Below, one piece after another: positions 142 to 57,002 of a stretch of DNA of 60,216 nt. The stretch is from Candidatus Latescibacterota bacterium. Lineage in GTDB: Bacteria > Latescibacterota > 4484-107. Position 1 is the first letter of the stretch. The number at the start of each line of letters is the position of its first letter. The DNA lies in NCBI GenBank assembly GCA_043804415.1, contig JAZDJA010000031.1, positions 1 to 60,216 of the forward strand. Reading direction: 5' to 3'. Position numbers and translations under genes: made by a program. The notes beneath the pieces are model-generated. The model searched no databases. It was not told the origin of the DNA and worked only from the letters and a program-made list of their open reading frames with translations.

Positions 142-2809
142 AAGGCTATCTAAACCAGCAGGGACTCAGTCCGGCTATTCGATAACGGGGTACGTGAAGT
201 ATAAGGACAAGGACAACGACAACAATCTTGTCCCACTGAAAGTCGTGTCTGTAAGACTTTGTAATTTTGTGGGCCAATCTGTAAATGGGGCCACAACCGA
301 CCAAAATGGATACTACAGTATGAGTGGTTCCCAGTCACTGGGCGAATATAACCTGTTCTATGTAGTGGTTTTGGCGGAGAACGAGGCTGCCAAGATGATA
401 GATGCTGATGTAATATTCAGCGACGTCAAATATCTCCAATACCGATTGTTTGCTGGCTATGAGTTGAATGGGGGCGAAGCGATCAACTTCTACAACCCTC
501 ATCCAGAGAGGTCCCGCATTCTTGAGACGATCCAGCATGCCAGGAACTGGTGCTTGGGGAAATTGAACTGGACTCGAAGCAAGGTCGATGCACGATATTA
601 CTCCAGTTCTGGAACGAGTGGTTTCATGTCGTTCCCAGAATATATCAAAATCTACGACGATGACGTTTGGGGGGAGGCAGATGGAAGAGAGACACAGGCT
701 CATGAATATGGACACGCCGTGCACTACCAGGTATCCGGAAACTCTTTGCCGTCTGGATCGGGACCTGACCCTCACGAATATCGGTCTGTGTCTAGTGGGG
801 GCTTTGCTCTAAGAGAGGGATGGGCTGAGTTTTTCGCTGCCGCCATTCTTCTCGATAGATTTGGCATCGTGATTGGATTCGGCCGTGCCTATGATCTTGA
901 GGATAACCCAAATCAGGAGCACCCTTGGCCTTATTGGCAGGGCGGGGGGACCAACACCAACGGTGAGATCGTAGAGGGGGCGGTAGCCAGCGTTCTGTGG
1001 GACATTTACGATTCTCCTTCCACTCCGGATGGCCTCTCGGGAGACGATGATCCGGTAAGTGGGCGACTTACCGATATGTGGGAGGTCTTAAAGGACGGGA
1101 AACTCGCAAGTTCGGCTCAGAGTTGGCACGTAAACGACATTAGGGAATTCAAGTACATCTGGGATGATGAAGACCCTCCCGGTAGTGTTTACATATTTCA
1201 ACATGCACCTGGTTCCCCCTCTATTGACGCAACATACGATTATGACCTGTTCGGTAAAATTCACGTGCCCGAGCTTTATTCAACGATTCAAGCGGGTATA
1301 GATGCGGCACACTCTGGGGATATGGTTCTTGTGGCCTCAGGCACTTACACTGAACAAACCTCGATGAAAACCGATGTGGATGTTTTCGGTCCCGCAAGTG
1401 GCACCGCGACGATTCAGTATTCCGGGGGAACCGCAGTTACCTTCAACAATGCCAATGCCCGATTAAGCGGGTTCACTTTGAAGGGGTTCAACGCGGTTAA
1501 TATCCAAACCGGCTCTTCTTCTGCGGAGATAGACCACAACACCGTCACGGACAGCTATGTGGGCATCAACGTGAGTGGTTGCAATCCTACCTTCCACCAC
1601 AACACGATATCCGAAAACGGAACGGAGTTTGGTGGAGGAGGCGTCTATGCGGGGTATTCGGCGGATCCGGTGATGTACAATGGGTACAACAACATTGAGG
1701 ACAATGGAGGATATGGCATCGGCTGTTACAGCTCCTCAGAACCCCAGTTAGGATCAGGGGGCAATCAGGGGTTAAACAACTTCACCGGGAATTTCACTTA
1801 CAACCTGACGGCTAATGCCAACTGCGATATGATCTATGCGGAGAACAACTGGTGGGGCACCTCTGTGGAGAGTTCGATCCGGGCCAAGCTCAATCATGGT
1901 CAGGGGTTGAACTACATAGACTACGACCCGTGGAGAACCGGTGCAGCCAAGATGGTCCCGCTTGCCGGAGATCCTCGAGCAGGGGCGGCTCGGGCGGAGA
2001 ACCGTCTGGGACGGGAGCTACTGATGGAGGGGAAGCCGGAAGAGGCCATCAGGTACTTCAAGGGAGTGATTGCGGAGTATGGAGACACGGAAGTGGCTCC
2101 GTTTGCTCTGGATCATCTGGTAGGAGCTTATGAGACGATGGAGGACAAGACCGATCTGCTTCCCTACCTCGAAGCCGTGGCGCAGGGACCTGCTCGCTCC
2201 GAGCTAAGAGGGTTGGCCTCCGAGTTTATCGTGCGGGTTTTGGTGTCGGAAGGAGCGTATGCTCAAGGCATAGCTCAGGCTCAGGAGGTCGTGAAGGTCT
2301 ATCCCGACCGGGAGCGGAATGAGTGGGTGTGGTTTCAGATCGGGTTGATCTACGAGTTGCTGGGCGAGACGGAAAAGGAGGCGGAGGCGTTTCGGACGTT
2401 CCTGTCCCGCTATCCTGTGAATCTCCAAAGCCGACCGAACGATCTTTTGCCGAGTTTGGCGAGAATTCAGTTGGGGTTGGATCCTTGGGGGATGGAGGAG
2501 AAAGAGGAGAAAATACGTTTGTCGAAGACCGCCGCCCTCTTCCAGAGTTACCCCAATCCCTTCAATGCGGAGACGGTCCTTGGGTTCACGTTGCCCCAAG
2601 CCACCTCCGTGAGCTTGATAGTCTACGATGTGCTGGGACAGCGCGTCAGGACGTTGGCCGATGGGGAGATGACTTCGGGGGTGCATCGGGTCCGTTGGGA
2701 CGGCAAAGATGAGCAACGCCGTGAAGTCTCCAGCGGAGTTTACCTTTCTCAACTGAAGGCAGAGGGCGGGAAGTTGGATCTAGTGAGGAAGATGATTTTG
2801 CTTCGCTGA
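140..2809 (+). pseudogene. Secreted modular protein (HEXXH zinc-peptidase-like domain, right-handed beta-helix, TPR repeats, C-terminal FlgD-Ig/T9SS type-A sorting-like domain), 5' end probably cut off by IS630
   Basis: ORF 194..2809 has QAHEYGHAVH...EGWAEF, YSTIQAGIDAA..GD.VLV..GTY, AENNWWG, TPR helices and a FQSYPNPFN...YDVLGQRVRTL...WDGKD...SSGVY...RKMILLR tail. The frame stays open upstream of the GTG to the IS junction (RRLSKPAGTQSGYSITGYVK). There is no RBS or signal peptide at 194. Confidence 0.7.
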
Positions 2810-2959: not shown

Positions 2960-3118
2960 ATGTTTTGATGGAACAGATCATCGAGCGTGGCTGGGGCACG
3001 CCGATCCCGCACTGTTGGCGGGGCGGAGCGCGGCATCCGCATTCTACGTGAGAGAAACCATCGGAAATGAACGAGGCGTGATCACCGCACTGTGCGGCGG
3101 GCCGTTTTTCATCGTGCT
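2960..3118 (+). pseudogene. Degenerate remnant of a FlgD/T9SS-type C-terminal domain
   Basis: Reads FDGTD...GRSAASAFYVRETIGNERGVIT, aligns without gaps to the remnant at 3407-3493, and is followed by the same TTTCATCGTGC motif. Confidence 0.35.
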
Positions 3119-3406
3119 GATGCGGAACCGATTGAAGGGGTCTCAATAGGCGATGTGAGCCTCCCGCAGGTTTCCCCGCGAATCCCCGGCGTAAGATTCA
3201 GGCGAAGACACGGCCAAGCGATTGCCAACCTGCGGGAGGTTTTTGTAGTGAGCAATGAGAAAGAAACGCGCGTGCGAAAAACCCCATGCCAGCCGGTGCG
3301 CCCAAACCCCATCGCCGCAACATCCCGCCTTCGGATGGGAGTCGGTTCGAGAACAAGCATCCCGCGTTTTTCGGCGCGCGGCATCGAACCTGAAAACGAA
3401 GCGTGT

Positions 3407-3493
3407 TGGAACGTTTCTAGCGGCTTGTATCTGATTCGTCTGAGCGGGGATCACGTGGGCGTGTGCACGAGGAAGACCATGCTGCTCCGGTGA
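3407..3493 (+). pseudogene. Orphan 3' remnant of a FlgD/T9SS-type C-terminal domain
   Basis: WNVSSGLYLIRLSGDHVGVCTRKTMLLR* parallels REVSSGVYLSQLKAEGGKLDLVRKMILLR* of the upstream gene. The upstream part of ORF 3092..3493 does not look protein-like. Confidence 0.6.
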
Positions 3494-4297: not shown

Positions 4298-4339
4298 TGG
4301 GTTGCAGGTCAATTGATCATGGAGTGATTTCGAGCAGAA

Positions 4340-4429
4340 GGCCAAGCTCGTGGGGAAAGCTCAAATCATCGCATCGGTAGGTGATGCGGTTTTCTCAACC
4401 GTCTCTGGATCAAGAAAGGAAGGTGTGCC
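4340..4429 (+). repeat. Upstream/leader repeat U, copy 1 (copy 2 at ~5869-5957)
   Basis: Near-identical ~90 bp (CAA.CTCGTGGGG.AAG.TCAA.TCATCGCATC.GTAGGTGAT...TTTTCTCAACCGTCTCTGG.TCAAGAAA) in front of both paralogues. Confidence 0.8.
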
Positions 4430-5347
4430 ATGAGAGGAATCATCTTGGCGATAGGTGTGTTCTCATTGTGTGTATTGGCCGGGGGCGTGTATGCCCAGGG
4501 CACTGGGCCGGATCTCTACATCCCTTACGTCGACCCAACGCGTATTGCGATCGACGGGCTGGGAACGGATTGGGAGGACCCTGCGGTGTACCCTCAGGAC
4601 TACAGGCTCTCATTCGCGGATACTCCCGAATACTTCGGGATCGTGACGGGTTCCGAGCTTTCCGGGCCGGAGGACTTTTCCGCCATCCTCTACCTCGGAT
4701 GGAGTACCGATAATAGGCTCTACGGGTACTGCCGGGTGACCGACGACGTCCTGCAGGTCGGTGTTTCCACCAACGGAGCTTGCTGGGGGGAGGACACCTT
4801 GGAGATTATGACGGATGCCGACAACAGTGGTGGGGACTTCAGGGGAGACGACTTACAGGCTAAGTACGCCCAGCAGTTCGGCGTACGCCAGAAGCTGGGT
4901 GTTCCCATGGGACCCGGTGGGAATGAGGACGATACCGTGTGCCACATCTGGGCTGAGGACGGGGCTAAGTGGATAACGGCCCCGGAGTTTTTTTACGCCG
5001 TGGTTGACTATCCCGCCGGCACGTCGGCTGTGTCCTATGCTTACGAGTTCAAACTGGCTCTCTGGGACGAGGTCGGGCTTTCCGTCGGGGAGTCCAGGAT
5101 GCACGACGCTATGCCAACCTACGAGGCCGGAGTGCCTATAGGTTTGGCCATCTGGTGGGACGATTGCGATGCGGAGTTGAACAGCAGGGATAGCCAGATC
5201 GGAACTGTGGGTCCCGAATACCTCACAGAAGTCTGGTATAAAGCCGATTACTTGAACGATGCCTACCTTGTGGACAACCCGCTTTATGATGTAATTGTGG
5301 CGGTGGCGCCCACATCCTGGGGTGCGGTGAAGGAGAGTCTCAGATAA
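4430..5347 (+). CDS. Secreted CBM9/DOMON-like sugar-binding protein, paralogue A, with C-terminal WGAVK tail
   Basis: Signal peptide (VYA/Q), motifs IDG..TDW, DFSA.LYLGW..DN.LY....VTDD, WG.D.LEI..DADN, YEFKL, IGLAI...D.D; ends AVAPTSWGAVKESLR. Confidence 0.7.
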   Translation: MRGIILAIGVFSLCVLAGGVYAQGTGPDLYIPYVDPTRIAIDGLGTDWEDPAVYPQDYRLSFADTPEYFGIVTGSELSGPEDFSAILYLGWSTDNRLYGYCRVTDDVLQVGVSTNGACWGEDTLEIMTDADNSGGDFRGDDLQAKYAQQFGVRQKLGVPMGPGGNEDDTVCHIWAEDGAKWITAPEFFYAVVDYPAGTSAVSYAYEFKLALWDEVGLSVGESRMHDAMPTYEAGVPIGLAIWWDDCDAELNSRDSQIGTVGPEYLTEVWYKADYLNDAYLVDNPLYDVIVAVAPTSWGAVKESLR

Positions 5348-5457
5348 GGCGATGTTTGGGCGGGAATCTGAAAGAGCAAAACCATCCGAGCCCTCTCAAC
5401 CCGATCACTACCATTCGATGTGCTTTTCTTCCTTCTTCTCGTTCCCACGCTCCGCGT
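5348..5457 (+). repeat. Downstream repeat D, copy 1 (copy 2 at 6870-6979), ending in a REP left arm
   Basis: 106/110 identical by eye to 6870-6979; ends CTTCTCGTTCCCACGCTCCGCGT. Confidence 0.9.
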
Positions 5458-5472
5458 CGTCAGGGATTTCAA

Positions 5473-5724
5473 GCGCCAAGAAGTCGCTGCAGAATTCGTG
5501 AAGATCATCGGTCCCATTTCTTGACGCGCTCAAACGTCAACTGGCTGCCCATTTTTCGCGCGCCCACCCGTCGCCCAAATCATGCTCGACTCCCGGCTAT
5601 TCTTGCCTGTAACCATCGGTTTGGGATTTGTGGGTACGTGAATGATCCGACGCATTGGCCGTATTCGAGCCCGAGGGACTCTCTGGGACAATCGGGGCTA
5701 TTGGAGGTGAGTTTGGCTTGGTGA
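5473..5724 (+). pseudogene. Internally deleted, frameshifted REP-associated tyrosine transposase (RAYT/TnpA-REP) remnant
   Basis: N-terminal PRSRCRI....SHFLT...VNWLPIF, then in a shifted frame VAQIMLDSRLFL, fused directly to the C-terminal GYVNDPTHWPYSS.RD..GQSGLLEV...W*. The HUH motif and catalytic Tyr segment are absent. Flanked by inverted REP arms. Confidence 0.75.
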
Positions 5725-5775
5725 CGCGGAGCGTCGAGAGGTGCGTTCCCACGCAGAGCGTGGGAACGAGAAGGA
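5721..5775 (+). repeat. REP right arm (GACGCGGAGCGTC + GTTCCCACGCAGAGCGTGGGAACGAG palindromes)
   Basis: Inverted counterpart of the arm at ~5428-5457. Confidence 0.85.
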
Positions 5776-5867
5776 ACGATGCCTACCTTGTGGACAACCC
5801 GCTTTATGATGTAATTGTGGCGGTGGCGCCCACGTCCTGGGGTGCGGTGAAGGAGAGTCTCAAGTAA
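5774..5867 (+). repeat. Orphan direct copy of the last 94 bp of paralogue A (5254-5347)
   Basis: 91/94 identical; encodes NDAYLVDNPLYDVIVAVAPTSWGAVKESLK*. Confidence 0.95.
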
Positions 5868-5957
5868 GGGCAAACTCGTGGGGCAAGATCAAGTCATCGC
5901 ATCAGTAGGTGATATGATTTTCTCAACCGTCTCTGGGTCAAGAAACGGAGGTGTACC

Positions 5958-6869
5958 ATGAGAGGAATTATCTTGGCAGTAGGTGTGTTGGTGTCGTGTG
6001 TATTGGCCGAAGTCGTGTATGCCCAGGGCACTTGGCCGGATATTCTCATCCCTTACGTCGACCCAACGTTCATCACCATTGATGGGTTGGGTACGGATTG
6101 GGAGGACCCTGCGGTGTACCCTCAGAAGTATAGGCTCTCATCCGCGGATGATCCCGATTACTTCTCGTTTAGGGCAGGTGACTTGCCTTCCGGACCAGAG
6201 GATTTTTCCGCTGTCCTGTACCTCGGATGGAGCACCGATAATATGCTCTATGTATACAGCCAGGTGACCGACGATGTCCTAAAGGGAACTGGCATTCGTA
6301 ATGGATCTAGCTGGGGACAGGAAACCATCCAAATTATGACGGATGCCGACAACATCGGCGGGCCATATAGGGAGGGTGGCCTGGAAGCTGAGCACGCCCA
6401 GCAGTTCGGCGTACGGCTTAGGCAGGGCGTTCCCATGGGACCCGGTGGGAATGAGGACGATACCGTGTGCCACATCTTGGCTGAGGACGGGGCTAAGTGG
6501 ATAACGGGTCCGGACTTTTTCTACGCCGTGGTTGACTATCCAGCCAACACGACGGCTGTAACCTACGCCTATGAGTTCAAGCTGGCTCTTTGGGACGAAG
6601 TCGGGCTTTCTGTTGATGAGTCCCAGCGACACGACGCTTTTGCATCTTTTCTCGCCGATACGCCCATAGGTTTGGCCATCGTGTGGAACGATTGTGATAT
6701 GGTGCCGGGCAACATGGATTCCAAAATCGGGACTATGAGTCCGGATGGATACGACTTCTGGAACAATGCCGATGCCTTCAACGATGCTTACCTCGTGGGG
6801 AGCCCGTATGCTCTTATTGATGCGGTGGCGCCATCTTCCTGGGGTGCGGTGAAGGCGAGTCTCAGGTAA
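5958..6869 (+). CDS. Secreted CBM9/DOMON-like sugar-binding protein, paralogue B, with C-terminal WGAVK tail
   Basis: Colinear close paralogue of 4430..5347; GGAGG RBS; ends AVAPSSWGAVKASLR. Confidence 0.7.
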   Translation: MRGIILAVGVLVSCVLAEVVYAQGTWPDILIPYVDPTFITIDGLGTDWEDPAVYPQKYRLSSADDPDYFSFRAGDLPSGPEDFSAVLYLGWSTDNMLYVYSQVTDDVLKGTGIRNGSSWGQETIQIMTDADNIGGPYREGGLEAEHAQQFGVRLRQGVPMGPGGNEDDTVCHILAEDGAKWITGPDFFYAVVDYPANTTAVTYAYEFKLALWDEVGLSVDESQRHDAFASFLADTPIGLAIVWNDCDMVPGNMDSKIGTMSPDGYDFWNNADAFNDAYLVGSPYALIDAVAPSSWGAVKASLR

Positions 6870-7006
6870 GGCGATGTTTGGGCGGGAATCTGAAAGAGCA
6901 AAACCGTCCGAGCCCTTTCAACCCGATCACTACCATTCGATGTCCCTTTCTTCCTTCTTCTCGTTCCCACGCTCCGCGTGGGAACGCCTCCTCAACGCGC
7001 TACGTC
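6870..7006 (+). repeat. Repeat D copy 2 plus complete REP palindrome
   Basis: CGTTCCCACGCTCCGCGTGGGAACG at 6962-6986. Confidence 0.85.
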
Positions 7007-15996: not shown

Positions 15997-17958
15997 TTAC
16001 CCACTGGCCTTCCCCGAAGGGGCCACTCTCCCCGCGGCCCGCACCAGCGCGTATCCCAGCATCGCAAAGAGAGCCAGGGAAAACAGGTCTCCGAACGAAC
16101 CCAGCCAGTCCGAGCCGATGCCCTCCGGCTTTCCTCTGAAAAACGCATACAGCGCCACGCCCACGCCCATCAATCCCTCGCCTGCAATCAGTCCCGATCC
16201 GAAAAGGATGCCCTGCTCCTTTCGATCCCGCAGTTGCTCCGCATCCCTCCGATAGCGCCGCTCGATTCCCTGCCGGATGCATCCGCCCACAAAGATCGGC
16301 GTCATGGTCGAAAGGGGCAGATACAGCCCCACGGCAAAGGGCAGCGATGGAATGGCGCATAACTCCGCCACCGCGCCAAATGCCACCCCGGTCAGTACCA
16401 GTCCCCACGGGATGTCTCCCGAAAGCACGCCCTCGATCACCGTCTTCATCAGCGTAGCCTGCGGAGCCGGAAGATCGGGGGAGCCGAAGGTGTAGACGCT
16501 ATTGAGCACAAGCACGGCACCGCATACGGCCAGCACCGAGGCGATCGCTCCGATCATCTCTCCCACCTGCTGTTTGTACGGCGTGGCGCCCACCAGAAAT
16601 CCCGTCTTGAGATCCTGCGAAGTATCCCCGGCGATGGAGGCCGATACGCAGACGATCGTCCCCACGGTCAGCGCGGCCACCTTGCCCATCTCGTCCGTCC
16701 ATCCCAAAAACACAAACACCAGACTCGTGCCCAGAAGTGTCACAATCGTCATGCCGGAGGTGGGATTGGAGGACACCCCGACCAGTCCCACGATCCGCGA
16801 AGAAACCGTGACAAAGAAGAAGCTGAATACGGCAATGCAGAGCGCGCAGACCAGCCGGACCCCGAAGGACTCCACATTTCCGATAATATGTGGCACCAGG
16901 GCAATCACCAAAACGATCAGCGCAGCACCTCCCAGGACATAGAACAGGGGCAGGTCCCGCTCTGTCCGTATCCGCTGAACAAACTGCTTGCTCAGCCGGG
17001 CGCGCACCTCCTCGGTGCCGAGGCGGAACGACTCCACCATGGTGGGCACCGAACGTACCACCGTAACGATCCCGCCAAAGATCACCGCGCCTGCTCCGAT
17101 GTAGCGGATATACCGCGTCCAGATCTCCGAAGGGGACATCTGTCCGATGGTTTTGACCATCTCCGGAAAGATCGGCGTGGTAAAGCCCTCCCCGAAATGG
17201 GCAATCAACGGAATCAGCACCACCCAGGAGACCAGGCTTCCAGCCACCATCACCGCCGCGATCCGGTACCCCAGAATGTATCCCACGCCCAACAGGGCAG
17301 GGGTGGTTTCGACCCCAATGACGGCCTTTTTCAATCTGGGAATGGCCAGATACACCCGCTCATTCCAAAGGTGCAGAAATCCGGAAAGGAATTTGTACCC
17401 CGCGCCGATCCCGAGTCCCACGAACACGTTTCTGGCACGCGATCCCCCGGCCTCGCTGGCGATCAGCACCTCCGCGCATGCCGTGCCCTCCGGATAGGGG
17501 AGATTTTTGTGCTCCTTTGCGATCAGATACCGCCTCAGAGGGATCATAAACAGGATGCCCAGCAATCCTCCCAAAAGCGCCAGCGTCGCCATCTGCAGAA
17601 GGGTCGGATCCAATCCCCACAAAAAGAGCACAGGAATCGTAAAAATAACCCCCGAAGCCAGCGAGGAACTGGCCGAACCCACCGTCTGGGATAGATTGGC
17701 CTCCAGAATCGAGGCGGGTCCCAATCTGCCCCTGAGCAGACGGAACACGGCCACAGTCATCACAGCCACCGGGATGGAGGTGCTCACGGTCATCCCGGCC
17801 TTGAGCCCGAGATAGGCATTGGCCGCACCGAACATCATCCCGAACAGACATCCCAAAACCACGGCCTTTACCGTAAACTCCGGGAGCATCTCCGTTGGCG
17901 GAATGTAGGGACGAACCGAATCTTCGGTCTCCGGCTGCCCGTCGTCTCTTTCGTTCAC
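15997..17958 (-). CDS. OPT-family oligopeptide transporter
   Basis: NAYLGLKAGMTVSTSIP, LPYPEGTACAEVL, SSNP.SG, QDLKTG.LVGATP..QQ, APQATLM. Confidence 0.93.
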   Translation of the reverse strand: MNERDDGQPETEDSVRPYIPPTEMLPEFTVKAVVLGCLFGMMFGAANAYLGLKAGMTVSTSIPVAVMTVAVFRLLRGRLGPASILEANLSQTVGSASSSLASGVIFTIPVLFLWGLDPTLLQMATLALLGGLLGILFMIPLRRYLIAKEHKNLPYPEGTACAEVLIASEAGGSRARNVFVGLGIGAGYKFLSGFLHLWNERVYLAIPRLKKAVIGVETTPALLGVGYILGYRIAAVMVAGSLVSWVVLIPLIAHFGEGFTTPIFPEMVKTIGQMSPSEIWTRYIRYIGAGAVIFGGIVTVVRSVPTMVESFRLGTEEVRARLSKQFVQRIRTERDLPLFYVLGGAALIVLVIALVPHIIGNVESFGVRLVCALCIAVFSFFFVTVSSRIVGLVGVSSNPTSGMTIVTLLGTSLVFVFLGWTDEMGKVAALTVGTIVCVSASIAGDTSQDLKTGFLVGATPYKQQVGEMIGAIASVLAVCGAVLVLNSVYTFGSPDLPAPQATLMKTVIEGVLSGDIPWGLVLTGVAFGAVAELCAIPSLPFAVGLYLPLSTMTPIFVGGCIRQGIERRYRRDAEQLRDRKEQGILFGSGLIAGEGLMGVGVALYAFFRGKPEGIGSDWLGSFGDLFSLALFAMLGYALVRAAGRVAPSGKASG

Positions 17959-51065: not shown

Positions 51066-51500
51066 TTATCGAAACAGCTCCTTGATCTTGGTCCACGTAC
51101 TTTCATCTATGTAGGTGACGGATTGCTGCCCCAGAAACTTCATCCGCGCCGTCAGTTCGGAAAGGTCTCCACCCGAACTCTCATACCGAATTTTGCCGTC
51201 ACCATCCACCAGGAGCACCCAGGGAAGATGGCCCACCTTCACGCGATCGGTTCCACAGGAAAGAACGGCAGGCAGTTCGTCCAAGCGTATTTCCTCCATC
51301 ACGCCCCCGGATTCCCGGACGATCTCCTCCAGGCGCGCCGCATCCTCCAAAGCCTGTTCTTCAGATCCGACCAGGCGAACCAGCTTCACACGTCCGTATT
51401 CGGGCTTCAACTCCTCGTAAGCCCCCGTCGAGCGTCCTCCCTGACCGGAAAGCAGGAGGAACAAAAACAACACCATTAGAAAAACACCCGCCCGTTTCAC
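51066..51500 (-). CDS. Secreted hypothetical protein (thioredoxin-like strand motif, no CxxC) with C-terminal STWTKIKELFR tail
   Basis: Signal-like N-terminus; LP.VLLVD.DGKIRY; AAGGGAGG RBS before GTG. Confidence 0.6.
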   Translation of the reverse strand: MKRAGVFLMVLFLFLLLSGQGGRSTGAYEELKPEYGRVKLVRLVGSEEQALEDAARLEEIVRESGGVMEEIRLDELPAVLSCGTDRVKVGHLPWVLLVDGDGKIRYESSGGDLSELTARMKFLGQQSVTYIDESTWTKIKELFR

Positions 51501-51625: not shown

Positions 51626-52642
51626 TCATTCCGAGCGCACCGAAAAATGGGCCTCCACCTGGCCATCCACAATCCGAGCTTTGGACAGATGCGCCCCTTT
51701 GATCTCAATAATCTGGATCGCACCCACTTTTTGTCCGTCCGTATAGCCCAAGACCTCCCCTGTGGAGGGATCCTCCAACGCCTTTCCCTTTCCGTAAACG
51801 TTGAGCTTATCCCCTATCGTCACGCCGTCCTCCGCGCCCGCATTTATATAAACCGTATTGTCCTGCACTTCCAGGACGAGGACCGGCCGCGTGGATGCTT
51901 TCAGGGCGGAAGGTGGCGTGACCACTTCCTCAACCTTGGCTTTGATCTCTTGGAGGGCTTCGGCCATCGCCCGACCGAGGATAGTTTTTCGAAACACTTC
52001 CGAACCGAATTCGACGTCGGTCAGCCCGTAGAACTGGCTATCATTCTCGGTGGGGCGTCCCAAAAGCGTCAGTCCAATATCGCGATCCATGACTTCGCCC
52101 TCTCCGCCCAACACGCCCAATTCCCGGCCATCCATGACCCGCCACAGCGTGGCCTCCAAACGCACGTTCGAAGAAAAAGACCGGTATCCCCCGAGCATCT
52201 GCGCGCCTGCCATGAAGCGGGAAATATTGAATACTTCGATCTTCCCGGAGATCAAGACATCCGCATTCAACTCCGCGCCGATGGCGGAGATGGCACTCGG
52301 GGACATCTTTCCCTCGCCGATCGAAGCCGAAAAATCCGGTCTGCGCTCCAAAACTGCCCGGACGCTGTCCTTCGGAATAATCGTATAAAAGGCGTTTTCC
52401 CGCAGCACCTCCCCCAAAAAACCCGCTGTGCCGCCCTTTATGTCCCAGGCCCCATCATAGTGGCTTTTGTCTTCAAAGGGCAGGACTGCGATCGTTTGGG
52501 CGGTCCACGAGCCCTCTATGGCCGTCCACTCCGGACGCTCAAGGGGCAGTTCCTGCGAGATCGGTTCGGAAGAGGCCTGAAACGTCGCGCAACCACCGAT
52601 CGACAGCATGAGCAAAAAACCCTTCAGAATCAATCGCGTCAC
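51626..52642 (-). CDS. CsgG/TolB-N-like lipoprotein with FlgT-C-like C-terminal domain
   Basis: Lipobox IGGC; IAVLPFED, IG.ELNADVLI.G.I..F; VYINAG...GV..GD.L.VY...L.DP.TGEVLG. Confidence 0.7.
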   Translation of the reverse strand: MTRLILKGFLLMLSIGGCATFQASSEPISQELPLERPEWTAIEGSWTAQTIAVLPFEDKSHYDGAWDIKGGTAGFLGEVLRENAFYTIIPKDSVRAVLERRPDFSASIGEGKMSPSAISAIGAELNADVLISGKIEVFNISRFMAGAQMLGGYRSFSSNVRLEATLWRVMDGRELGVLGGEGEVMDRDIGLTLLGRPTENDSQFYGLTDVEFGSEVFRKTILGRAMAEALQEIKAKVEEVVTPPSALKASTRPVLVLEVQDNTVYINAGAEDGVTIGDKLNVYGKGKALEDPSTGEVLGYTDGQKVGAIQIIEIKGAHLSKARIVDGQVEAHFSVRSE

Positions 52643-52656
52643 TTCGGGTCTCCCTC

Positions 52657-52824
52657 CTATTTCGGCTTGATACCATCCCAATAATCGTTGCTATTCTTCA
52701 CGCCCTTTACATTTCGCAAGTTCCTTTGGCTGTCCAGATCACGGGAGGGCCCGCTCCCCTTCCAGATCAGGACAAAGGCCCCGGCGAAAAGGGCAGCACC
52801 CGCCAGAAGCATCAACTCTCTCAC
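52657..52824 (-). CDS. Small single-TM hypothetical protein (55 aa)
   Basis: AGGGGG RBS before GTG 52824; one hydrophobic helix; fills the gap between co-oriented genes. Confidence 0.4.
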   Translation of the reverse strand: MRELMLLAGAALFAGAFVLIWKGSGPSRDLDSQRNLRNVKGVKNSNDYWDGIKPK

Positions 52825-56966: not shown

Positions 56967-57002
56967 CCTCTTGTTCCCACGCGCCAGCGTGGGAACAAGA
57001 GG
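56967..57002. repeat. REP palindrome
   Basis: CCTCTTGTTCCCACGC-GCCA-GCGTGGGAACAAGAGG, perfect 16-bp stem, same family as the RAYT-flanking REPs. Confidence 0.85.

Follow-up and report, generated by a model that had tools for sequence, protein, structure and literature searches.

Short C-terminal sorting and docking signals tell the final place of exported proteins, and behind each known signal of this kind a machinery of its own has come to light, whether sortases, exosortases, type IX secretion, or cohesins. Here we describe a candidate signal of this kind, a tail of ~16 residues shared by three predicted secreted proteins (A, B, and C) encoded in a 60,216-nucleotide (nt) stretch of DNA from a Candidatus Latescibacterota bacterium (positions 1 to 60,216 of contig JAZDJA010000031.1, assembly GCA_043804415.1). 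This stretch, the window, is part of contig C31 of a 4.51-Mb genome (G000; 414 contigs, 57% G+C). The tail reads as a short linear C-terminal tag, hydrophobic-x-hydrophobic-[E/A]-x-[ST]-[ST]-W-G-x-[IV]-K-x-x-[FL]-[KR], and it recurs on unrelated exported proteins of the same genome and of other phyla.

Known C-terminal signals and the tag

The type A C-terminal domain of the type IX secretion system (T9SS; TIGR04183/PF18962, or the PF13860 form) resembles the tag in standing at the extreme C terminus of signal-peptide proteins, in being carried by many families, and in being modular. The two occur in the same genomes (70 proteins carry the domain here), and within the phylum the tag is confined to clades that have a canonical PorU. 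However, the tag has 16 residues where the T9SS domain is a beta-sandwich of 70 to 100 residues, it matches no T9SS profile, its carriers are half the size, and most of the Bacteroidota sampled lack it. PorU, PorV, and SprA accompany the tag in this genome, but the converse fails, many PorU-positive genomes having few tags or none.

The LPXTG/sortase, PEP-CTERM/exosortase, GlyGly-CTERM/rhombosortase, and MYXO-CTERM/myxosortase signals are likewise short, strictly C-terminal, and borne by unrelated exported proteins, in numbers that vary from one to dozens per genome between lineages. Unlike these tripartite signals, the tag has neither a transmembrane helix nor a basic cluster, and all 21 tails recovered from the genome (see below) end 5 to 9 residues after the Trp. 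No NCBIfam sorting-domain model matched any carrier, and no co-occurring sortase-like gene was found in a survey that did not include systematic sortase-family profiling. The dockerin of the dockerin-cohesin pair resembles the tag in that a linker connects it, as an optional C-terminal extra, to enzymes that are otherwise complete, and a dockerin-like module takes the place of the tag in a lyase-like family considered below. A dockerin is, however, a folded calcium-binding module of ~70 residues (PF00404) rather than a peptide, no cohesin-like receptor is known for the tag, and no tag protein had a Pfam match to PF00404. The C-terminal amphipathic membrane-targeting helices of PBP5/DacA, MinD, and FtsA share with the tag their small size, their position, and an amphipathic character with aromatic and basic residues. 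These helices are conserved in character but not in sequence across unrelated proteins, whereas the W-G-x-[IV]-K of the tag is invariant across phyla.

The tag falls outside every known signal family, being too short for a T9SS domain, lacking a sortase-type transmembrane segment, and not being a dockerin. Literature searches, with supplementary files outside their range, found no paper with the motif spellings and none joining Latescibacter* with type IX secretion; on sorting signals in these phyla, they brought up only unrelated genomics papers and myxosortase preprints.

A tail shared by unrelated exported proteins

A preliminary description of the window had pointed to a common ending on three signal-peptide proteins, and all three open reading frames (ORFs) were recovered with that ending and a signal-peptide-like N terminus (Table 1). 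Their C-terminal ends (AVAPTSWGAVKESLR in A, AVAPSSWGAVKASLR in B, and YIDESTWTKIKELFR in C) fit [ST]-W-[GT]-x-[IV]-K-x-x-[LF]-R, with the Trp 9th from the end in all three. Across the wider set of carriers, this spacing and the terminal Arg, both singled out in the description, proved modal rather than obligatory. A and B are paralogues (209 of 305 residues identical), and the reported contrast between a conserved tail and the diverged ~60 residues before it was upheld, with 13 of the last 15 residues identical against 29 of the preceding 60. The bodies of both fall just under the gathering score of Pfam CBM9_1 (PF06452; 23.2 and 22.9 bits against 23.4). We found 22 homologues of A, of which those named come from Latescibacterota metagenome-assembled genomes (MAGs); 9 of the 22 listed carry a precomputed PF06452 match, and the tail is kept in all 17 that were aligned, with W297, G298, and K301 invariant. 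No fused, longer form of A was found, which is weak evidence. Protein C was rightly called unrelated to A and B: BLAST of tail-less cores gave no similarity beyond the tail, and C had no Pfam or NCBIfam match. The tails of all three proteins likewise lacked any Pfam or NCBIfam match at E values up to 0.1, T9SS profiles included.

The chance of such an ending was assessed over the whole genome with 38,733 ORFs (six frames, stop to stop) that were 60 amino acids (aa) or longer. The motif [ST]W..[IVL]K occurred 62 times in this set, and its Trp lay exactly 9th from the end in 12 cases against 0.46 expected per position, a 26-fold enrichment at that one position. At the DNA level, the pattern W-G-x-[ILVM..]-K-x-x-[FLY..]-[KR..]-stop had 15 matches in the genome, compared with none for a reversed-pattern control. 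The shared tail is real and far beyond chance, and the C-terminal enrichment that the preliminary description had proposed to look for is present.

A broader search for W-[GSAT]-x-[IVL]-K followed by 2 to 6 terminal residues returned 22 ORFs, of which 17 had a signal-peptide-like start, compared with 865 of the 3,403 genes called by our own crude method (codon log-odds with greedy overlap removal); the odds ratio is 10 (Fisher p = 5e-7), in keeping with the enrichment among signal-peptide proteins that had been anticipated. The five carriers without a signal-peptide call were the C terminus of SprA, a gene cut by a contig end, a remnant in the window, a miss of the heuristic, and an ORF whose first part has no start codon, the only unexplained one. 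The SprA C-terminal fragment (contig C373, 12771-15794, minus strand) ends in ...VGVWGEIKLN, a loose-motif match that we take as chance. The 21 remaining ORFs belong to at least 14 unrelated families, as judged by BLAST of tail-less cores, among them CBM9-like, VWA, rhodanese, polysaccharide-lyase-like (weak), LTXXQ/DUF3106-like repeat, and lipocalin-like (weak) proteins and eight families without a match in Pfam or NCBIfam. One of the carriers is a lipoprotein, and A-type paralogues or remnants make up six of the 21 ORFs. With the Trp as the point of alignment, the 21 tails read hydrophobic-x-V-[E/A]-x-[ST]-[ST]-W-G-x-[IV]-K-x-x-[FL]-[KR]; the W and K are present in all of them by construction of the search, and the G is present in 18.

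A predicted flexible appendage conserved as a peptide

In an AlphaFold2 model of A (17 sequences; mean predicted local distance difference test [pLDDT] score of 74), the last confident strand spans residues 276 to 281 and residues 289 to 305 have a pLDDT of <50. The tail thus lies outside the modeled fold. An integral strand of the CBM9-like domain, which the preliminary description had named as telling against a signal, is not what the model shows. The second carrier modeled was S1, a small tagged family of other phyla described below (30 sequences; pLDDT of 86). Here residues 20 to 112 form a confident FN3-like sandwich, the tail has a pLDDT of 62 to 69, and a short helix covers W-G-S-I-K-A-L. 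In both carriers, the models predict that the tail is a flexible appendage outside the folded domain.

The tail is also under strong purifying selection. Outside its own family, C has positional orthologues in f4, f5, f7, and f8 of the phylum. Their bodies are only 20 to 32% identical to C and are barely alignable, yet each of the seven orthologues closes with the same nine residues, WGKIKELFR; the window copy has Thr in place of Gly. The codons of these tails vary synonymously and are followed by any of the three stop codons while the peptide is fixed, and the constraint is therefore on the peptide and not on the DNA. W, G, and K do not vary, and within a family neither do the "x" positions, a pattern that fits a reader holding the peptide in a groove better than it fits lipid binding.

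Modularity is seen in the lyase-like cargo, for which we inspected the 120 best of 424 homologues. Ninety-seven of these 120 end right after the conserved core (...IWIDDLRIxT), and 23 add an acidic linker and [ST]WGx[IV]K. A dockerin-like module stands at the place of the tag in 3 of the 120, one of them with a precomputed PF00404 match, and a T9SS domain does so in none. Given core-only, tagged, and dockerin-like homologues, the tag is an optional C-terminal add-on at the position of a known docking module.

Distribution of the tag

Within the phylum, we sampled 168 genomes, whose families are labeled f1 to f14. The DNA pattern matched in 109 of them, with counts of 6 to 18 per genome in f1 to f4, f7, f8, and part of f14 and of only none to two in the PorU-positive families f6 and f10. 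The 56 genomes of f11 to f13 had no PorU over the NCBIfam cutoff. In five of these genomes, none of the 12 pattern matches examined was a bona fide tag: 11 lay in ORFs of at most 71 aa or were not C-terminal, and the twelfth was the end of a PBP-like protein with a different motif. Credible tags within the phylum occur only in families with a canonical PorU. The phylogenetic profiling suggested in the preliminary description nests the tag in canonical-PorU clades; the association is, however, confounded with phylogeny, and no co-occurring reader or processing enzyme came out of it. A PorU-less genome of the phylum (G084, C1:4761051-4761485) has three copies of a ~204-nt unit, each with ...WGGIK[IM]I.., which is a tandem repeat and not a tag.

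A scan of public species genomes with a stricter pattern matched at least 120 stretches, of which 80 loci were listed and the 81 tag ORFs in them were examined; 69 of the 81 are signal peptide like. The matches listed come from Zixibacteria, Eisenbacteria, Krumholzibacteria, Latescibacterota, Calditrichia, Fermentibacteria, Coatesbacteria, a Chlorobi-like MAG, and the Ignavibacteria Melioribacter, Kapaibacterium, and Rosettibacter primus strain 4148-Me; for Melioribacter roseus, MAG records carry the tag. Three of the listed matches, in Serratia and in one MAG each of Pelagibacteraceae and Bacillota, lie in ORFs of 14 to 18 aa and reflect chance. From this spread of sequences, the tag appears to be ancient and widespread across related phyla, which are for the most part uncultured. 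Pattern matches per genome numbered 26 in Krumholzibacteria, 11 in Eisenbacteria, 2 in Rosettibacter, and 1 each in Calditrichia and the MAG chromosome bin522, and a canonical PorU was present in all five of these tag-bearing genomes. In the phylum of Rosettibacter, Bacteroidota, 16 of 151 evenly drawn genomes had a match and 135 had none; all matches in the 16 are the S1 ending, TWGSIKALFR, TWGMIKELFR, or SWGMIKELFR.

S1 accounts for 33 of the 81 ORFs in the listed loci and occurs, among the matches listed, in Ignavibacteria, Calditrichia, and relatives (e.g., L060:309-698, minus strand, and 32 other loci). It is a protein of 130 to 150 aa with a signal peptide, one FN3-like domain, and the ending ...VSSVKRTWGSIKALFR, and in 22 of the 33 listed loci it lies directly upstream of a Maf-like gene. 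S1 had no Pfam or NCBIfam model, and a PDB sequence search gave nothing below an E value of 0.028. Its fold is a generic FN3, a very common repeat found in 92,684 proteins in a representative search, and so the fold says nothing about the tag. No homology between protein C and S1 was detected by phmmer, with or without the tail. A second small family, S2, contributes 11 of the 81 ORFs in the listed loci and is from Zixibacteria.

T9SS-type tails and machinery in the genome

A profile made within the genome from the FlgD-type C-terminal domain of the first gene of the window found 70 proteins, in 64 of which the domain ends within 10 residues of the C terminus, typically in K-M-V-L-[IL]-R. Only 1 of the 22 tag ORFs has both tag and domain, and there the FlgD-like domain is internal (residues 125 to 208), so that the two kinds of tail are nearly exclusive, as the preliminary description had thought worth checking. 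Tag proteins are also shorter than T9SS-domain proteins, with a median length of 280 aa (n = 18) versus 631 aa (n = 55; Mann-Whitney p = 7e-7). A protein on contig C259 has an FN3-like domain (residues 241 to 351) that is 48 to 62% identical to domains in three T9SS-domain proteins, and it ends in a tag-like ...DWGTVKHSME where these three paralogues have the T9SS domain, a natural swap. Four proteins (contigs C231 [16069-17325], C91, C324, and C411) carry a FlgD/T9SS-like domain near the N terminus (~108 to 255) rather than at the C terminus, after a CarboxypepD_reg-like domain; one of them is also tag-ended.

Of the T9SS, the genome has PorU (722 bits), a long PorU-like paralogue, several PorV-like barrels, and an SprA that is divided between two contigs. 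Secretins are present as well, so a second outer membrane route exists. The long PorU-like paralogue (contig C63, 14595-16799, plus strand) and its relatives are open frames of 1,300 to 1,900 aa that match PorU positions 5 to 740 only. They occur across the phylum, including f12 and f13, which are without canonical PorU, and because these families are also free of tags we rejected the paralogue as a dedicated sortase. PorV was considered as a reader through a complex prediction for a PorV-like barrel (L007, residues 34 to 354) with the last 44 residues of A; it scored 0.00, "no answer," which speaks neither for nor against such a role. Contig C126 (3-3587, plus strand) encodes, in order, a PorU-like C-terminal part with a T9SS domain, a PorV/PorQ-like barrel (...ASLRF), and a 258-aa lipoprotein, which matches the FN3-like domain profile of S1 (E = 1.3e-6).

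A second candidate was the 351-aa lipoprotein encoded upstream of gene C (Table 1). Its orthologue adjoins the C orthologue, or lies within ~5 kb of it, at loci of six genomes from four other families (f4, f5, f7, and f8). The lipoprotein family is present in f1 to f9 and f14, with up to five matches per genome in f14, and absent from f10 to f13; it is conserved in most PorU-positive families of the phylum. We rejected it as a universal reader because, although its distribution tracks the tag within the phylum, it was not found in four of the five tag-bearing genomes from outside the phylum.

Interpretation of the tag

What is usually sought, by comparison, in a C-terminal sorting or docking signal is found here: a terminal position, unrelated exported carriers, modularity, flexible attachment, purifying selection, and a lineage-specific range with variable copy number. 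We lean, with a little more belief than doubt, toward a peptide label bound by a conserved envelope protein; this reader and the outcome of binding, be it retention, surface display, or transfer, are what we infer. The tag would be joined by a flexible linker to Sec-exported proteins, the envelope protein would bind it as a peptide, and binding would keep the carrier at, or bring it to, one defined place in the cell envelope. The tag would serve as a docking or sorting label beside the T9SS C-terminal domain and would be no part of the fold of its carrier. The preliminary description had proposed a ~15-aa C-terminal export or anchoring signal parallel to the FlgD/T9SS-type domain; a position-locked element on exported carriers, outside their fold, was borne out, whereas export or anchoring itself goes beyond these results. 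In a fuller version, which we offer tentatively and find somewhat doubtful, the tag would be the address label for an envelope docking system, as yet undiscovered, that goes back to the ancestry of the Fibrobacterota-Chlorobiota-Bacteroidota (FCB) group, the phyla that bear the T9SS. The receptor would bind W-G-x-[IV]-K; S1, the only tagged protein in Ignavibacteria and Calditrichia, would be the founding client; and dozens of secreted enzymes in Latescibacterota, Eisenbacteria, and Krumholzibacteria would have adopted the label later for envelope display or retention.

Several observations weigh against a label with a protein reader. No reader of the tag was found, and the tag genes share no recurrent neighbor in the genome. 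The 351-aa lipoprotein is not a general reader, since a profile of six orthologues found none in the Rosettibacter, Eisenbacteria, Krumholzibacteria, and Calditrichia genomes; in the fifth tag-bearing genome there were weak partial matches only. The conserved neighbors of S1 are of a housekeeping type (Maf, a membrane protein, and a MATE pump). The rhodanese and LTXXQ-like carriers look periplasmic and the lyase-like proteins and the beta-helix proteins of other phyla look extracellular, which does not point to a single destination. Among the lyase-like proteins, what follows the Lys differs both in sequence and in length, so that reading of a free C terminus at a fixed distance is not obligatory. 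Our gene calls are crude, with one PorU-like gene miscalled, and every signal-peptide call comes from our own heuristic.

The tag could instead be a minimal type IX secretion signal that the T9SS (PorV, SprA, PorU, or a paralogue) recognizes and by which it carries the protein across the outer membrane, a contender that we take seriously but think unlikely. The genome has a canonical PorU, SprA, and PorV-like barrels; credible tags in the 168 genomes keep to canonical-PorU families, f11 to f13 having no PorU over the cutoff and, in the five genomes examined, no bona fide tag; a canonical PorU is present in each of the five genomes with tags from other phyla; and the C259 protein has its tag-like end in place of the T9SS domain of its paralogues. 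Both kinds of tail, moreover, end in hydrophobic-hydrophobic-[KR]. Yet the tail is unable to form an Ig-like sandwich, no T9SS profile matches A, B, or C, f6 and f10 have a PorU but none to two tags per genome, and 135 of the 151 Bacteroidota genomes have no match. The smaller size of the tagged proteins (280 versus 631 aa), some of which have periplasm-type domains, the absence of any T9SS domain in place of the tag among the 120 best lyase-like homologues, and the alternative route offered by secretins also argue against it, and very few independent evolutionary events stand behind the co-occurrence with PorU. An amphipathic C-terminal anchor that lies in the plane of a membrane leaflet and needs no protein reader, like the helices of PBP5 or MinD, strikes us as quite improbable. 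It would account for the W, I/V, L, and F on one face with flanking Lys and Arg, for the small periplasm-type proteins among the carriers, and for the short helix that AlphaFold2 places over W-G-x-I-K-x-L in both models (A and S1), but this helix is of low confidence (pLDDT of 30 to 69) and nine residues are very few for an anchor. The helical hydrophobic moment exceeds that of shuffled tails (0.40 versus 0.33 in this genome and 0.54 versus 0.39 for external tags), but the strand-type moment is no lower than the helical one (0.50 and 0.59, respectively); values above shuffles for both periodicities leave helix and strand unseparated, which tells against the docking label too. Generic lipid anchors, furthermore, conserve hydrophobicity and not identity, whereas the tag keeps its W, G, and K unchanged from phylum to phylum, and orthologous families keep whole tails unchanged.

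We give very little credence to the tail as a site for a periplasmic C-terminal-binding protease or quality control factor, such as a PDZ-bearing tail-specific protease, which would make it a matter of maturation or turnover and not of location. Prc/CtpA-family proteases do read free C termini, and the tail is strictly C-terminal, exposed, and flexible. PDZ-type readers, however, usually prefer a hydrophobic last residue where the tag has Lys or Arg, one would hardly expect a degradation tag to stay invariant from phylum to phylum on a protein that is conserved and single-copy, and nothing ties the tag genes to protease genes. That the shared ending is functionless, a product of chance, of descent among paralogues, or of a nucleotide-level element at gene ends, is scarcely credible. 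A-type paralogues or remnants do account for six of the 21 ORFs, and tails have been copied within the window by segmental duplication, but at least 14 unrelated carrier families, the 26-fold enrichment at one position, a peptide that stays fixed while synonymous codons and all three stop codons vary, and the same ending across many phyla speak against it.

The tag marks anything from a single protein per genome (Ignavibacteria and Calditrichia) to upward of two dozen (a Krumholzibacteria genome has 26 pattern matches). The tag-bearing phyla are important in the degradation of polymers in sediment and groundwater, and recognizing the label would improve secretome prediction in them, as no Pfam or NCBIfam model covers it. 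S1 provides a handle in a cultured organism: cultured Rosettibacter has one tagged protein, so the reader could be findable by pull-downs and genetics. Rosettibacter is described as a cultured genus (PMC13064019).

Other features of the window

Table 1. Positions of genes, tails, and remnants in the window
Feature	Position	Strand	Description
871-aa protein with FlgD-Ig / T9SS type A C-terminal domain	194..2809	+	Ends KMILLR; PF13860, TIGR04183
Orphan tail remnant SWGKLKSSHR plus stop	4351..4380	+	Leader of A; DNA pattern match and sequence
Gene A	4430..5347	+	305-aa ORF; signal-peptide-like N terminus, CBM9-like body, C-terminal tag
Tag of A, VAVAPTSWGAVKESLR plus stop	5297..5347	+	Sequence; AlphaFold2 residues 289 to 305 with pLDDT <50, outside fold
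Remnant of third A-type gene, 3' part	5645..5867	+	Ends ...SWGAVKESLK; without start codon or signal peptide
Orphan tail remnant SWGKIKSSHQ plus stop	5879..5908	+	Leader of B; DNA pattern match and sequence
Gene B	5958..6869	+	303-aa ORF, paralogue of A; same tag, signal-peptide-like N terminus
Tag of B, DAVAPSSWGAVKASLR plus stop	6819..6869	+	Sequence; 43 of last 48 nt same as A
Gene C	51066..51500	-	144-aa ORF; signal-peptide protein of no known family, ends ...ESTWTKIKELFR
Tag of C, TYIDESTWTKIKELFR plus stop	51066..51116	-	Thr in place of usual Gly after Trp
351-aa lipoprotein, conserved upstream neighbor of gene C	51626..52681	-	Weak FlgT_C-like C-terminal part; no NCBIfam family

The region 4338-6979, which holds A and B, is a segmental duplication. 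The repeat 4338-4637/5866-6165 is the duplicated leader of A and B and contains both orphan tail remnants; on contig C184, a full-length ORF of 246 aa ending in ...ATWGQIKSSHR adjoins an A-type paralogue. Between A and B, the remnant of a third A-type copy is 97% identical to A over 5774-5869 versus 5254-5349.

The 871-aa protein at the start of the window matches PF13860 at 1.6e-9 and TIGR04183 with 29.4 bits against a cutoff of 23, and it is a neighboring cargo of the parallel T9SS-type system. Downstream of it, and upstream of the A/B array, an ORF at 3092-3493 (plus strand) has an end, ...SSGLYLIRLSGDHVGVCTRKTMLLR, that resembles the end of a FlgD/T9SS-type C-terminal domain, while its remainder looks noncoding; it is probably the remnant of a decayed T9SS cargo gene.

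A dispersed palindromic element occurs in the window at 5441, 5745-5767, 6963-6985, 15908, and 56973-56996. Its arms, GTTCCCACGC and GCGTGGGAAC, have 58 and 49 copies, respectively, genome-wide, and copies of the element lie directly downstream of both A and B, within the 92%-identical repeat 5285-5457/6807-6979.

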